Source of the DNA: Bergeyella sp.
Lineage (GTDB): Bacteria; Bacteroidota; Bacteroidia; Flavobacteriales; Weeksellaceae
Direction of reading: 5' to 3'
Assembly (NCBI GenBank): GCA_049841315.1
Contig: JASGDB010000014.1
Location: forward strand, 1,697 to 65,696
DNA length: 64,000 nt
A program made the translations under genes and the position numbers. Of this stretch, positions 10,162 to 63,319 are shown one piece after another. The notes under the pieces are model-generated. The model was not told the origin of the DNA and searched no databases. It saw only the letters and a list, made by a program, of their open reading frames with translations. Each line of letters opens with the position of its first letter. The stretch's first letter is position 1.

Positions 10162-11268
10162 TTGAAATACTACATTATCGCAGGAGAAGCATCAGGCGAT
10201 TTACACGCTTCCAACCTGATGAAAGCCATTCAGCAAAAAGATTCCGACACCGATTTCCGTTTTTGGGGCGGAGATTTGATGCAGAAAGTTTCGGGCGAAA
10301 AACCGGTGAAACATTACAAAAATTTGGCATTTATGGGTTTTGTGGAGGTCTTGATGAATTTAAAAACCATTTTAAACAATATTAAATTCGCCAAAAAAGA
10401 CATTCAGCAGTATCAGCCCGATGTTCTGATTCTGGTGGATTATCCCGGATTTAATTTAAGAATTGCAGAATTTGCAAAAAAACTCGGAATAAAAGTCGTC
10501 TATTACATTTCTCCGCAACTTTGGGCGTGGAAAGAAAACCGTGTGAAAACCATCAAAAAATATGTGGACGAAATGCTCGTGATTCTTCCGTTTGAAAAAG
10601 ATTTTTACAAAAAACATACTATTGATGCTCATTTTGTGGGACACCCGCTTTTAGATGCGATTTCGGATTTAAAGGAAATTAACGTTGTTGATTTTAAAAA
10701 AGAATTTCATCTGAACGATAAAGAAATCATCGCATTACTTCCCGGTTCACGAAAGCAGGAAGTGGAAAAAATGCTGGAAATGATGCTTTCCGTTCGTCCT
10801 TATTTTAAGGAATATCAGTTTGTCATTGCCGGAGCGCCGAGTCTTCCGAAAGGTTTTTACGAAAAATATGTGGACGAAAATGTGCATTTCGTTTCCAACA
10901 GAACGTACGATTTGCTGAGATGTTCCAAAGCCGCTTTGGTTACTTCCGGAACGGCAACATTGGAAACCGCACTTTTGAATATTCCCGAAGTGGTGTGTTA
11001 TAAAGGAAGCAAAATTTCCTACGAAATCGGAAAAAGATTAATCGGAAAAAACATCAAATACATTTCTCTGGTCAATCTGATTATGGATAAAGAGGTTGTA
11101 AAAGAATTGATTCAGAAGGAATTAAATACAAAAAATATCGTTCACGAACTGAATTTGGTTTTAAACGAAAACCGAAACCGCATTTTAAACGATTATGCAG
11201 AACTCCGTAAAAAACTCGGTGGAAAGGGAGCGAGTGAGAAGGCGGCGGAGATTATTGTTGAAATTTGA
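10162..11268 (+). CDS. lpxB: Lipid-A-disaccharide synthase
   Basis: 368 aa with a TTG start in the track. The N-terminus YYIIAGEASGDLHASNLMKAI and the overall pattern are LpxB-like. Confidence 0.9.
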   Translation: MKYYIIAGEASGDLHASNLMKAIQQKDSDTDFRFWGGDLMQKVSGEKPVKHYKNLAFMGFVEVLMNLKTILNNIKFAKKDIQQYQPDVLILVDYPGFNLRIAEFAKKLGIKVVYYISPQLWAWKENRVKTIKKYVDEMLVILPFEKDFYKKHTIDAHFVGHPLLDAISDLKEINVVDFKKEFHLNDKEIIALLPGSRKQEVEKMLEMMLSVRPYFKEYQFVIAGAPSLPKGFYEKYVDENVHFVSNRTYDLLRCSKAALVTSGTATLETALLNIPEVVCYKGSKISYEIGKRLIGKNIKYISLVNLIMDKEVVKELIQKELNTKNIVHELNLVLNENRNRILNDYAELRKKLGGKGASEKAAEIIVEI

Positions 11269-60016: not shown

Positions 60017-60766
60017 TCAATTTTGATGTCCCAACAATTCTCTGATTTGATAAAAAAACCGCTCCATCAATCTCAAATCTTCGGTTACGATTTCGGCATT
60101 TCCTTTGAGTTCTTTATCGAAAGGAAGCTGTTTGTTGTATGAAGTTTTCAAATTTTTCGGAAGAATGACTTCAATGTAATAATTTCCCTTTTCATCGGTT
60201 GTTAAAGAAATGTTTTTTACTTTTCCTTTGATGATTCCGAATTCCTGATAGCGGTAATTATCTAATTTTATCAATACTTTCTGACCTTGCTTGATTTTTC
60301 CGGAATTGGCTGCGGGAATCAGCATTATTCCTATCAAATTACCTTTACTTTTCGGGAAAACCGACATTATTACAGTTCCTGATTTTACCATTTGGTTTTC
60401 TGCTAAAAATTGCTGAAAACTGACAATGCCATCCATTGAAGATATAATTTTCTCTGATTGTTCATTCTGTAAGGATTTCAATGTCATCAAAATATCATTT
60501 TTCTTTACTTCCTGATGATTTTTCACAAATATTTTCTCAATTTTAGAATCATCTCCTAATAAAAATTTTTCCGGAGGATTTTGGGAAGTTACGATGATTG
60601 GAGCGGGGACAAATTCAGGGTATTTAATGAAATAGCTCATCAATAAAATCATCAAAAGTATAATAAAAATCACGGAATTTCCCCAACGAATCATCCAATG
60701 AGGAGGCGCTGTAAGAATATCCTGAACGCTTTCGCTTCGTAATTCTATTTCGTCTAATTTATCCAT
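60017..60766 (-). CDS. HlyD-family periplasmic adaptor, short form lacking the long coiled-coil hairpin
   Basis: 249 aa. N-terminal TM anchor (WGNSVIFIILLMILLMSYFI), then lipoyl/barrel-type segments (ILMTL..., GKIKQGQKVLIKLDNY, GKVKNISL). It lies downstream of the C39-ABC exporter gene. Confidence 0.7.
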   Translation of the reverse strand: MDKLDEIELRSESVQDILTAPPHWMIRWGNSVIFIILLMILLMSYFIKYPEFVPAPIIVTSQNPPEKFLLGDDSKIEKIFVKNHQEVKKNDILMTLKSLQNEQSEKIISSMDGIVSFQQFLAENQMVKSGTVIMSVFPKSKGNLIGIMLIPAANSGKIKQGQKVLIKLDNYRYQEFGIIKGKVKNISLTTDEKGNYYIEVILPKNLKTSYNKQLPFDKELKGNAEIVTEDLRLMERFFYQIRELLGHQN

Positions 60767-60814: not shown

Positions 60815-63178
60815 TCAATTTCCCAATTCCAACTGGTTTTTCACCAATCGGTAATATTCTCCTTTTAATGCTGTCAGTTCCTGATGACTGCCTTCTTCCA
60901 CTACTTTTCCTTTGTCGAGAACGATAATTTTATCGGCGTTTTTCACCGTTGATAAGCGGTGTGCAATGACGATTGCGGTTTTGCCTTCAAAAAAATGTTC
61001 CAGATTTTCCATTATGATTTTTTCGTTGTTGGCATCGAGAGCAGAAGTGGCTTCATCAAAAAAAATGAATTCCGGAGATTTGTAAACGGCTCTTGCAATG
61101 AATAATCTTTGTTTTTGTCCGCCCGAAATTCCAACGCCTTCATTTCCGATTTTGGTGTTGTAACTCAACGGAAGACTTTCAATAAACTCTTTGATATTGG
61201 CGATTTCTACGGCATTTCTCAGTTTTGTTTTGTCCACATAATCCTCACCGACTGCAACATTATTGGCAATAGTATCATTAAAAATATAGCCTTCCTGCAT
61301 TACAACGCCGCAATGTTTTCTCCAAAAACTTGGGGAAATATTCTTTAGCCTCACCCCTAAATCTCCTCTCCAAAGGAGAGGGGACTTCGTGCGTTCCTGT
61401 AATTCCGCTGATTTTTTTTCTGTTTTCTTATTTTCAAAGTTTGTAACGTGCGAAGCCCTTTCTCCTTTGGAGAGAGGGTTTGGGAGAGAGGCTCCAAAAC
61501 CGATTTCTCCGGAATTTGGTTCATAAAATTTCATTAATAATTTCAAAAGCGTGGTTTTTCCGCTTCCGCTTGCTCCGACAATCGCAGTTGTTTTCCGGTA
61601 AGGAATTGTAAGATTCAGGTTTTCAAAAACATACTGGTCCGAACCAATGTAGCGGAATGAAACGTCTTTTACCAGAATATCCTGCTGCGGAATTTCATTG
61701 ATATATTGCTCGTTTTTATCTTCCTCGTCTTCTTTATCGTGAATTTCGCCTAATCTTTCGAGTGATATTTTCGCGTCCTGTGTTTGTTTTATAAAATCAA
61801 TGAGTTGCAAAAGCGGACTGTTTAATTGTCCGATAATGTATTGAATGGAAAGCATCATTCCAAGAGTGAGACTTCCGCTTAACACCAATTTAGCGGAAAG
61901 AAAACTCACGAAAATATCTTTCATCTGGTTGATGAAATTTCCGCCGACTGACTGCCATTGTTCCAAAGACAGCGATTTTATTCTTATTTTGAATAATCTG
62001 ACCTGCAAAAATTCCCAGTCCCAGCGTTTTTTCTTTTCGGCGTTGTGCATTTTTATTTCCTGCATTCCGTTCACCATTTCGATCACTTTGCTCTGTTCCT
62101 GCGAAACCTGTGAGAACCTTTTGTAGTCTAATTCTTTTCGCTTTTTCAGGAAAAAAGAAATCCAGCCGATGTACAAAACCGCTCCGAAAATATACACCCA
62201 AAACAGACGGTAATCATAAAAAAGCAGGACGATACTGAAAATAATGAGATTGATGAGGGAAAACAACGTGTTGAGCGAAGAAGTGGTTAAAAGCTGTTCA
62301 ATTCTGTGATGGTCATTGATTCTCTCCATAATATCTCCCGTCATTCTTGTATCGAAAAAGGAAATCGGCAGTTTCATCAATTTGATGAAGAAATCGGAAA
62401 TCAGGGAAATATTAATCCTTGCGGAAAGATGCAACAGAATCCAACTTCGTATGACTTCAATGCCCATTCTTCCGAGGAAAAGCATTACCTGCGCAATGAG
62501 AACCAAATAAATGAAATTCAAATCCTGATTCCGGATTCCGATATCTACAATGCTTTGAGTAAGGAACGGAAAAATAAGCGACAATAAACTCCCTGCCAAC
62601 AATCCGATGGCAAGTTGAAAAAACAGAGATTTATATTGAAATAAATATTTTGATAAAAATGAAAATTCCTCACCCCAGCCCTCTCCAAAGGAGAGGGAGC
62701 TAAATTCGTCTTCAAAAAACTTCGGGGTGGTTTCTAAAATCAGAGCGATTCCTTCTTCTGTGTTTTCATCGGCATTTTCTCCAATCCAGCTTTTAATGAA
62801 TTCTTCTTTGGAATATTCGATTAAGCCGTAACTTGGGTCGGAAACATAAATTTTATATCCTTTGTCATTCCGAGCTTGTCGAGGAATCTCAATTTTGTAA
62901 ACTACTACAAAATGCTGCTTGTTCCAATGTACAATGCACGGAAACGGAACTTCCTCACACAACGTTTTGAAATCAATCTGAACACCCAATGAACGAAACC
63001 CTAAATTTTCTGCGGCATCGCTTAATCCCAACAAACTGCTTCCTTCTCTTGTGGTTTCTGAAAGATTGCGGATTTTTTGTAATGGTATGGTTTTGCCGTA
63101 GAATTTGGAAATAATTCTAAGGCAGGTTGGGTCGCAGTCTTTGAAGTCGGGTTGTATGTAGAAAGGGAAGTTTTTCAT
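60815..63178 (-). CDS. Peptidase C39 domain-containing ABC exporter (bacteriocin/peptide processing and export type) carrying three in-frame repeat-element insertions
   Basis: 787 aa. The C39 domain has KDCDPTCLRII.. (Cys) and HFVVVYK (His). It has six TM helices. In the NBD, Walker A is GASGSGKTT, the signature is ISGGQKQRLFIARA and Walker B is IFFDEATSALD. The reading frame is intact across all three repeat copies. Confidence 0.85.
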   Translation of the reverse strand: MKNFPFYIQPDFKDCDPTCLRIISKFYGKTIPLQKIRNLSETTREGSSLLGLSDAAENLGFRSLGVQIDFKTLCEEVPFPCIVHWNKQHFVVVYKIEIPRQARNDKGYKIYVSDPSYGLIEYSKEEFIKSWIGENADENTEEGIALILETTPKFFEDEFSSLSFGEGWGEEFSFLSKYLFQYKSLFFQLAIGLLAGSLLSLIFPFLTQSIVDIGIRNQDLNFIYLVLIAQVMLFLGRMGIEVIRSWILLHLSARINISLISDFFIKLMKLPISFFDTRMTGDIMERINDHHRIEQLLTTSSLNTLFSLINLIIFSIVLLFYDYRLFWVYIFGAVLYIGWISFFLKKRKELDYKRFSQVSQEQSKVIEMVNGMQEIKMHNAEKKKRWDWEFLQVRLFKIRIKSLSLEQWQSVGGNFINQMKDIFVSFLSAKLVLSGSLTLGMMLSIQYIIGQLNSPLLQLIDFIKQTQDAKISLERLGEIHDKEDEEDKNEQYINEIPQQDILVKDVSFRYIGSDQYVFENLNLTIPYRKTTAIVGASGSGKTTLLKLLMKFYEPNSGEIGFGASLPNPLSKGERASHVTNFENKKTEKKSAELQERTKSPLLWRGDLGVRLKNISPSFWRKHCGVVMQEGYIFNDTIANNVAVGEDYVDKTKLRNAVEIANIKEFIESLPLSYNTKIGNEGVGISGGQKQRLFIARAVYKSPEFIFFDEATSALDANNEKIIMENLEHFFEGKTAIVIAHRLSTVKNADKIIVLDKGKVVEEGSHQELTALKGEYYRLVKNQLELGN
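61348..61492. repeat. ~145-bp MITE-like element with ~38-bp terminal inverted repeats, inserted in-frame in the ABC nucleotide-binding domain
   Basis: The left end is gcctcacccctaaatctcctctccaaaggagaggggac. The reverse complement of the right end is gcctctctcccaaaccctctctccaaaggagaaagggc. Each arm contains the CTCTCCAAAGGAGAG palindrome. It is translated as GASLPNPLSKGERASHVTNFENKKTEKKSAELQERTKSPLLWRGDLGVR, between SGEI.. and ..LKNISP. Confidence 0.8.
62668..62700. repeat. Solo terminus of the same CCTCACCCC...CTCTCCAAAGGAGAGGG family, in-frame in the linker after the C39 domain
   Basis: The sequence is cctcaccccagccctctccaaaggagagggagc. It is translated as SSLSFGEGWGEE, a different frame from the copies in the NBD. 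Confidence 0.75.
62863..62890. repeat. TGTCATTCCG...AGGAATCT-family repeat, in-frame inside the C39 peptidase domain
   Basis: The sequence is tgtcattccgagcttgtcgaggaatctc. It is translated as EIPRQARNDK, between the catalytic-His strand HFVVVYKI and YKIYVSDP. Its termini match the intergenic copies at 24704-24770. Confidence 0.75.
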
Positions 63179-63206: not shown

Positions 63207-63319
63207 TTTGTCATTGCGAGCGAAACGAAGTGAAGTGAAGCAATCTGTTGAACGAATCCCGAATTGCTTTTTAACACGGGATTGCTTCCTGCTTCGTTCC
63301 TCGCAGTCGCAATGACAAA
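63207..63319. repeat. ~113-bp composite palindromic element (TGTCATTGCGAGCGAA...GAAGCAATC arms with an inner hairpin)
   Basis: The left arm is tttgtcattgcgagcgaaacgaagtgaagtgaagcaatc (63207-63245). The right arm is gattgcttcctgcttcgttcctcgcagtcgcaatgacaaa (63280-63319). The inner hairpin is aatcccg/cgggatt. It fills the gap between the thioredoxin-fold gene and the ABC exporter gene. Confidence 0.8.

Follow-up and report, generated by a model that had tools for sequence, protein, structure and literature searches.

Intrastrand triplex motifs of the TM or TMECO type, earlier known as BoxC and PIT, are built from a C-stem and a G-stem with a loop between them, followed, after a second loop, by a G-rich third strand in mirror symmetry to the G-stem (Holder et al. 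2015, PMC4666352). TMECO has been counted in 3,610 copies in 262 proteobacterial genomes, and in Escherichia coli K-12 it is always intergenic, occurs sometimes as inverted "palindromic" pairs, and has local indels nearby and no adjacent mobility gene; related G/C-rich motifs in cyanobacteria were discussed in the same survey (PMC4666352). Here, we describe motifs of this kind in a 64,000-nucleotide stretch of DNA from Bergeyella sp. (contig JASGDB010000014.1, positions 1,697 to 65,696; the whole stretch is called the window), where they form a palindrome that is translated in frame inside the nucleotide-binding domain (NBD) of an ATP-binding cassette (ABC) exporter. A repeat described as strictly intergenic is thereby placed in coding sequence. 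Earlier work on BoxC and PIT is reportedly that of Bachellier in the 1990s and of Hoyne and Maher in 2000, and to our knowledge the origin of these repeats and their means of spread have been left unexplained since the 1990s.

Rickettsia palindromic elements (RPEs) are said to insert in frame into genes, as reportedly described by Ogata et al. A previous model-made account of the window, prepared from the letters and their open reading frames (ORFs) and referred to here as the sequence-only reading, compared the exporter element with RPEs, and the resemblance is borne out in that a palindromic repeat is translated in frame within a maintained gene. Its view that such in-frame elements are rare outside Rickettsia no longer holds, since intragenic repetitive extragenic palindromic (REP) sequences have been documented in several phyla (Di Nocera et al. 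2013, PMC3733652). Our analysis makes it probable that the palindrome is an inverted, outward-facing BoxC/PIT/TM pair that was inserted at an NBD hairpin by a repair-type event and is translated as a tolerated loop of an exporter under selection.

A translated palindrome made of two triplex motifs

A repeat search placed the palindrome at positions 61347 to 61493 (147 bp; the sequence-only reading had given ~145 bp), with two arms that are 78% complementary and separated by a 49-nt spacer (Table 1). The terminal inverted repeats (TIRs) of that reading are present, at a length of 49 nt each and not ~38 bp. The sequence that it had assigned to both repeats, CTCTCCAAAGGAGAG, is exact in the right arm (61366 to 61380) and has one mismatch in the left arm (61460 to 61474), and a further exact copy is found at 62681 to 62695 in the same gene. 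With up to two mismatches, this sequence has three matches in the 64-kb window against 0.12 expected, all of them in the exporter gene. As noted previously, the ORF passes through the element without a stop codon or a frameshift, the 787-amino-acid frame being open throughout. The insert encodes GFGASLPNPLSKGERASHVTNFENKKTEKKSAELQERTKSPLLWRGDLGVR, in which 16 of the 51 residues are charged (K, R, E, or D). The sense RNA (161 nt) is predicted to fold at -62 kcal/mol (z = -6.0), and none of 200 dinucleotide shuffles was equally stable.

The arms were identified with a generic finder that takes a pyrimidine stem, a complementary purine stem, and a mirror third strand, with at most one triplet mismatch. 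All three arms of the window, i.e., the two of the palindrome and a solo copy in the linker that joins the C39 domain to the transmembrane domain (TMD), were detected, and 30 shuffles of the window contained no such motif. Each of the three has a C-rich stem and a complementary G-rich stem across a TTT loop (3 to 6 nt in the motif definition), followed by a third G-rich block that is mirror-symmetric to the purine stem, as in a purine-motif class II triplex. The right arm contains CCCCTCTCC-TTT-GGAGAGG-..-GGGGTGAGG (finder match at 61351 to 61384, minus strand) and the left arm CCCTTTCTCC-TTT-GGAGAGAGGG-TTT-GGGAGAGAGG (61456 to 61489, plus strand), while the stems of the linker copy are CCCTCTCC-TTT-GGAGAGGG. 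The third strand of the left arm mirrors the G-stem of that arm exactly and differs from the third strand of the right arm. The two arms form an inverted pair facing outward ("third strands outward"), and the 79 nt between their hairpin cores comprise the 49-nt spacer and the inner extensions of the arms. In comparison with the published TMECO, CCCTCNCCC-N3-6-GGGNGAGGG-N3-GGGNGAGGG, the same blocks are shifted by one position and the second loop has 3 to 7 nt, which makes the window motif a sequence variant. By their architecture, the window arms are BoxC/PIT/TM-family motifs with a predicted triplex. A match of the relaxed finder at 43562 to 43604 was rejected as an A/T-rich false positive inside lon.

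Table 1. Positions of the exporter gene and its repeats in the window and of DUF559 insertions at other loci
Feature	Position	Strand	Description
Host gene, C39-peptidase-domain ABC exporter (bacteriocin/PCAT type)	60815..63178	-	787 aa, intact ORF
Inserted segment	61348..61502	-	155 nt without counterpart in empty alleles; alignments with L003, L005, L001, and L039
Right arm (gene sense)	61347..61395	-	Triplex motif plus inner extension GAACGCACGAAGT; read in frame 2 as KSPLLWRGDLGVR
Spacer	61396..61444	-	A-rich, 49 nt; encodes a K/E-rich stretch; partly homologous to the spacer of L001 and L039
Left arm (gene sense)	61445..61493	+	Triplex motif on the window plus strand; read antisense as SLPNPLSKGERA
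Solo triplex motif, C39-TMD linker	62668..62698	-	Frame 3, SLSFGEGWGEE; in L001 and L039, not in L003 or L005
Fragment of second repeat family	62861..62875	-	GCTCGGAATGACAAA, in the variable C39 loop; encodes QARNDK
Second palindromic element, 113 bp	63207-63319		In the spacer directly upstream of the ABC gene; termini TTTGTCATTGCGA...TCGCAATGACAAA; interior GAGGAACGAAGC...GCTTC
DUF559 insertions	L040:3949-4389; L137:400-880; L135:9050-9600 and 10300-10830; L113:1640-2140		In frame; each bracketed by one inverted motif pair

The insertion in comparison with orthologues

The exporter was compared with the best 120 orthologue clusters (Chryseobacterium, Epilithonimonas, Kaistella, and others), whose proteins are mostly of 730 to 731 amino acids. 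In 118 of the 120 clusters, the insertion is absent and the segment reads GEIKxGNTNLKNISP; extra sequence is found only in the window protein and in P0006. The segment is a true insertion and not a family-wide loop, in agreement with the sequence-only reading. The orthologue alignment that this reading had proposed for the boundaries and for a possible target-site duplication (TSD) was informative on both. With two loci, L003 (= P0002) and L005 (= P0003), as codon-level references for the empty site, the boundaries were set at 61348 and 61502, where 155 nt stand in place of 20 nt. The gene is thereby longer by a net 135 nt (45 amino acids), so the in-frame addition claimed earlier was correct and its size of ~49 residues was not; at the protein level, 51 residues stand in for 6 (K-x-G-N-T-N) of the orthologues. 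The junctions at which the 20 nt are replaced, as judged against the empty alleles, are GGAGAAAT followed by CGG... and ...GAGGC followed by TAAAGAAT. Neither a TSD nor a flanking direct repeat was found at the NBD junctions in comparison with the empty alleles or at the linker and C39 sites.

Pfam ABC_tran aligned residues 519 to 712 (194 amino acids) to a profile of 137 positions. The relatives in the PDB match residues 24 to 83 and 132 to 308 of the query NBD, with 3 residues between the two blocks versus 48 in the query. By alignment, the insertion site is the turn of the G-x-I-x-x-D-G-x-D-I beta-hairpin after the Walker A helix ("GEIKxGNTNL" in the orthologues), which bears out the NBD hairpin location suggested earlier. 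Judging from general NBD topology, this turn is probably solvent exposed. The hairpin is thus marked in an ABC transporter NBD as a site tolerating ~45 to 50 extra residues.

Two other kinds of insert were tried and rejected. The segment begins with GFGAS and ends with GVR-L, without the Cys/Ser...His-Asn boundaries of an intein, and with respect to an intron or a known RNA family, Rfam gave only chance-level matches (MIR2606, E = 4.7).

Related insertions and further arms in the same gene

The same insertion is present in L001 (JGI and Logan, 796 amino acids) and in L039 (metagenome-assembled genome [MAG] JAITMJ01, 801 amino acids). These two and the window have in common the left junction (GGAGAAATCGG-T/A-TTTG), a homologous spacer, the right arm, and the right junction; as the insert is common to three independent assemblies, an assembly artefact was ruled out. 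The left arm is absent from both L001 and L039. Lineage-specific in-frame changes comprise 48 nt within the hairpin in L001 and a duplicated DLGVRK in L039. Over the three lineages, at least four separate indels are seen in the insert, and all of them keep the frame.

In L039, an additional arm with the 13-nt inner extension GAACGCACGAAGT is located in the C39 loop (EVPSPLERGFRGE); no such arm is present there in its closest relative, L001. With arms at the NBD, the linker, and the C39 loop, all three sense frames are used. The right (NBD) arm of the window is identical at 46 of 48 positions to the NBD arm of L039 and at 47 of 48 to its C39-loop arm, while the exporter genes of the arm-sharing lineages share 76% identity overall and 56% at third codon positions. 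This leaves two readings: copying or conversion of the arms more recent than the divergence of the genes, or a constraint on their nucleotide sequence. In L039, a 48-nt unit has recently been copied to a second site of the same gene. The distribution of arms is mosaic: the window gene is nearest to that of L003 in all three domains, yet the L003 sites are empty. No G/C-rich triplex motifs were found outside the exporter gene in the 64-kb window or in the 5- to 8-kb flanks of four orthologous loci.

The C39 loop (columns 97 to 120 of alignment A1, after HFVVVY) is a hot spot of variation, and close orthologues show four or more states: (i) none; (ii) EIPRQARNDKG or ETLRQAQGDS; (iii) KKYNVKS...TSDN; and (iv) KKYN...EVPSPLERGFRGE. 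Since these states do not track overall gene similarity, the variation of the loop suggests patchwise recombination.

A second palindromic repeat is associated with the same gene (Table 1). The fragment GCTCGGAATGACAAA in the C39 loop is a piece of the terminus of the 113-bp element, and all three matches to this terminus in the 64 kb are at the exporter gene, versus 0.21 expected. At another locus (L017, 920 to 1177), an arm pair encloses the other common Bacteroidota repeat type, which is translated as VIARNEAIS...SLAMTA and resembles the intergenic element of the window; therefore, the two repeat families nest.

Arms in viral contigs and metagenomes

The arm pattern was found at 32 loci in viral contigs (41 arms) and at no fewer than 120 loci in metagenome contigs, with 135 arms among the matches listed. 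When an arm was considered to be inside a long ORF if its frame ran without a stop for 60 codons or more in each direction, 6 of 41 viral arms and 25 of 135 metagenome arms (~18%, among the matches listed) were so placed. Strong Pfam domains were present in 19 of the 20 arm-bearing metagenome ORFs tested. The arm-bearing ORFs include MetH, three leucyl-tRNA synthetases (LeuRS), a Val/IleRS-type synthetase, methylmalonyl-CoA mutase, GcpE, AspRS, TsaD, trigger factor, HemC, RsmE, a major facilitator superfamily (MFS) transporter, and a type IX secretion system (T9SS) cargo protein. From sequence alone, three arm-bearing ORFs of viral contigs look like phage portal/MuF-type fusion proteins. Among the genic copies, arms are translated in all six reading frames. 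BoxC/PIT/TM arms therefore repeatedly supply proteins with loop or linker insertions and give rise to spurious "GEGWGE/SPLERG" peptides.

Most arms occur singly. Adjacent inverted pairs almost always face outward, as in the window; 17 of them have no cargo and spacers of 26 to 107 nt, and the arm pairs of 297 to 311 nt in L013 and L017 contain no recognisable cargo. One viral contig (L028, 10425 to 11881) carries five outward arm pairs in tandem, with 55- to 56-nt spacers, ~216 nt between pairs, and a period of ~335 nt.

Possible DUF559 endonuclease cassettes

In-frame domains of the Vsr-like family DUF559 (PF04480) were identified in MetH of L040 and in LeuRS of L113, L135 (two domains), and L137. 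Each of these five, which are all the in-frame DUF559 domains found at triplex-motif loci, lies between the two arms of an outward pair. Two LeuRS sites, of which one precedes TTRPDT and the other ETSTMPGYAGSSWY, are filled in two different organisms each, and the embedded domains retain the invariant E/D/H residues. Their close homologues are mostly free-standing genes encoding 100 to 166 amino acids. Ten DUF559 loci were picked by protein similarity alone, a choice unbiased as to arms. Arm-like pairs are located within ~200 nt of DUF559 in eight of them (L161, L164, L246, L247, L248, L166, L167, and L168), against a background of 1 motif per 213 kb; of the other two, L160 has partial arms and L249 is ambiguous. 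The stem sequences vary between elements, and the hairpin-plus-mirror architecture is retained. Free-standing, arm-flanked DUF559 genes occur in Bacteroidota and Cyanobacteria. No arms were found at 77 more distant phage DUF559 genes, and DUF559 is present in only 4 of the 152 arm-bearing loci listed (viral and metagenome). TM-derived peptides were seen in 4 of 120 called DUF559 proteins, a count that is uninformative because the gene calls end before the arms.

In E. coli K-12, the DUF559 gene ycjD (L165, NC_000913.3, 1350800 to 1352000) has a degenerate hairpin at its 3' end, followed by a partial duplication of the last ~45 nt, and TMECO number 9 is located ~168 nt downstream on the same strand. 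The region of ycjD and TM is kept in 3,346 of 5,426 E. coli genomes; in the others (38%), homology ends ~40 nt before the motif. One genome without this region (O157:H7 strain MB9-1) has a different island instead and is not a clean empty site.

A survey of PD-(D/E)XK nucleases groups DUF559 with Vsr and with a group I intron homing endonuclease (PMC3424549). Our literature search found no paper connecting DUF559 with BoxC/PIT/TM repeats, so a connection between the two draws on the counts of the present analysis alone. DUF559 gave no signal anywhere in the 64-kb window, and no remnant of it is present between the arms of the exporter element. Compared with the cassettes, the window element has the outward inverted motif pair and lacks a DUF559 ORF between the arms.

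Selection on the exporter gene

The exporter has Peptidase_C39, ABC_membrane, and ABC_tran domains (Pfam), and its protein is identical to P0001 ("MAG: Bergeyella sp."), which is annotated as intact by NCBI. For the whole gene, dN/dS is 0.04 to 0.09 in every pair, including the insert-bearing ones, and is similar across the C39, TMD, and NBD regions; the value for the pair of the window and L003, with a dS of 0.83, is likewise in this range. The Walker A, Q-loop, signature, Walker B, and H-loop regions align unchanged with those of the orthologues. Because dN/dS is this low in every pair, the gene can be considered maintained: its substitution pattern indicates that it is kept under purifying selection and is not a pseudogene. 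The cryptic pseudogene that the sequence-only reading had offered as one option is unlikely in view of these ratios and of the several independent in-frame indels.

A Fic-domain gene follows the exporter in L001 (2486 to 3253) and L039 (1372 to 2151) and is absent from the window, L003, and L005. In L001, it is located between the exporter and membrane-fusion protein genes; in L039, it was checked only beside the exporter.

Competing explanations

Several observations weigh against the reading of a tolerated loop in a selected exporter. The KDCGPTCL motif, elsewhere invariant, carries G16D in the window protein (63131 to 63133, codon 16), next to the Cys presumed to be catalytic in C39. This is one of eight private changes at columns invariant in the other 119 clusters, the highest number in the set, and together they are slight signs of relaxed constraint. 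The HlyD-type membrane-fusion protein encoded next to the exporter (60017 to 60766, minus strand) has 249 amino acids versus 430 to 434 in relatives, an in-frame deletion of ~181 amino acids having taken out the entire coiled-coil hairpin, and the export system of this MAG could be decaying. In addition, the comparison with L001 and L039 is compatible both with an ancestral left arm and with its later addition in the window lineage; every motif in the window and the four orthologous loci lies within one gene, which random insertion alone leaves without explanation; and an AlphaFold2 model of the full-length exporter (14-sequence alignment, with all homologues at least 78% identical) was unusable, with a mean predicted local distance difference test (pLDDT) score of 34.5. 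The substitutions at invariant columns and the loss of the neighbouring coiled coil would suit a decaying gene that is still open by chance, the insert being neutral junk in a pseudogene. We regard this as very unlikely, because dN/dS is low over all three domains, also at the dS of 0.83, the five ATPase motif regions are unaltered, the indels of the insert retain the frame in three lineages, and the NCBI annotation is intact. We also doubt, only a little less strongly, that the repeat has been co-opted, with selection on an mRNA or DNA structure or on the loop (e.g., for translational pausing between subdomains, regulation, or an interaction surface). The arms, being 46 to 47 of 48 identical when host third positions are 56% identical, placed in loops or at domain boundaries three times within the gene, and part of a sense RNA with a z score of -6, would be consistent with this. 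However, recent copying or conversion explains the conservation equally well, the left arm is dispensable (it is missing in L001 and L039), L001 has 48 nt inside the hairpin, and most orthologues work without any insert.

It is similarly improbable that the palindrome is a classic miniature inverted-repeat transposable element (MITE) or a REPIN moved by a DDE transposase or a RAYT tyrosine transposase, with the arms as TIRs or REP hairpins. Its long inverted arms, a size below 300 bp, and an A-rich center resemble such elements, as do the inverted dimers, known from REPINs, and the GTAG/GAAG-type boxes before many arms elsewhere (GAGTGTAGC or GCGTAGC in some, CGAAGT or CGAAGC here; many arms are boxless). 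However, there is no TSD and 20 nt of the target are replaced, and the third-strand block is conserved as a stem mirror, which neither a TIR nor a REP model demands. The arm with the inner extension matched once in 185,579 species genomes, at the exporter gene of L039, and therefore does not represent a high-copy MITE family; the related specific pattern GAACRYRCGAAGTCCCCTCTCCTT had no match in metagenome contigs. No transposase or RAYT was seen beside arm pairs, a statement that does not extend to a genome-wide RAYT search, and the only cargo found was DUF559. Full-length copies elsewhere in the 64-kb window are lacking, and the other copies sought by the sequence-only reading are likewise absent there outside the exporter gene. 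Its label "MITE-like" is abandoned here, given the missing TSD, the replaced target, the lack of a high-copy full-length family, and arms that are usually single. A further explanation extends the reading of an inserted BoxC/PIT/TM pair and does not contradict it: the palindrome may be a cargo-less derivative of a mobile DUF559 cassette, the triplex pairs being cis-acting ends of Vsr-like nuclease genes that home into conserved genic sites and are translated unspliced, and the window copy having been mobilised or converted in trans or having lost its nuclease. We put this forward tentatively, as a possibility falling short of a probable one. It is suggested by the arm pairs around all five in-frame domains in MetH and LeuRS and near eight of the ten loci picked by similarity, where chance would give 1 motif per 213 kb, by an architecture that persists when stems differ, by the order of ycjD and TMECO number 9 on one strand, by LeuRS sites filled in different organisms with the E/D/H residues kept, and by the homing endonuclease already included in the Vsr/DUF559 clade (PMC3424549). 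Against it stand the window, without DUF559 or a remnant in the spacer, the solitary state of most arms (with DUF559 at 4 of 152 listed loci), and the 77 armless phage genes; the shared insertion sites could also reflect vertical inheritance, and homing and cleavage are putative.

A proposed account

According to the account that we favor, a unit of spacer and right arm would have entered the exporter gene at the NBD beta-hairpin turn (G-E-I-K-x-G-N-T-N-L) by a recombination or repair-type event in which ~20 nt of the target were replaced. Break-repair or gene-conversion copying is suggested because target DNA was replaced and no TSD is present. The insert would then have stayed open, its purine and pyrimidine tracts being nearly stop-free; as the repeat tracts are without stop codons in most frames, such insertions often remain open. 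It would be translated in the exporter as a charged loop of ~50 amino acids, presumably exposed at the surface and tolerated there. Copying may be driven by double-strand-break repair or gene conversion and possibly begun by a DUF559 (Vsr-like) endonuclease; to such an initiating nuclease we would give somewhat less than an even chance. Intergenic BoxC/PIT/TM copies are known to be unstable. Genic copies, inside which only in-frame deletions are viable, may persist longer for that reason, and they would be "trapped" and outlast the intergenic ones. The retention of the frame through later indels of the insert, like the copying of the 48-nt unit within the gene, is directly observed.

More generally, and with the reserve expressed above for the cargo-less derivative, BoxC/PIT/TM repeats could be the terminal structures of small DUF559 endonuclease cassettes, with cassettes, arm pairs, and single arms invading protein-coding genes at conserved sites and persisting by in-frame translation instead of splicing, and with the exporter palindrome as a cargo-less case. 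DUF559 would then be a concrete candidate enzyme for the spread of these repeats and would point to homing-like elements independent of introns and inteins.

Comparison with known systems

With bacterial MITEs (Correia/NEMIS, RUP, and Nezha), the window element shares its size, long inverted arms, an A/T-rich center, and a non-coding nature. It differs in having no TSD, no matching insertion sequence (IS) or transposase, and no multicopy full-length family, and its arms also occur as independent single units. The cassettes of DUF559 and arms resemble homing endonuclease genes and inteins in that they are located at conserved sites of essential genes (LeuRS and MetH) and fill the same sites in different organisms. 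However, the window element has no nuclease, and the cassettes have neither intein splicing motifs nor an intron, so a cassette is simply translated as an extra domain.

RPEs and intragenic REPs are likewise short palindromes in frame in functional genes, where they add tens of residues, sometimes twice per gene, and their hosts are often housekeeping genes such as those of tRNA synthetases. They show no evident sequence resemblance to the arms (the RPE families were set apart by description) and have no third-strand block. In addition, RPEs are spread over many genes per genome, whereas the arms are found here in one gene in 64 kb and in many genes across metagenomes.

The closest likeness is to the BoxC/PIT/TM family itself, with the same three-block architecture and a published core, CCCTCTCCC/GGGAGAGGG/GGGGTGAGGG, that is nearly that of the window, CCCCTCTCC/GGAGAGGGG/GGGGTGAGG; single and inverted-pair occurrence and local indels are common to the E. 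coli family and the elements described here. The window stems differ in their shifted register and in a second loop of 3 to 7 nt, and the host is a low-GC flavobacterium (38.5% GC), whereas the published hits are in proteobacterial genomes. The E. coli motif is intergenic, whereas all three arms of the window are inside coding sequence and are translated. As in-frame repeats of other families have been documented (RPEs, and REPs in PMC3733652), the phenomenon is a known one, and the BoxC/PIT/TM case is new.

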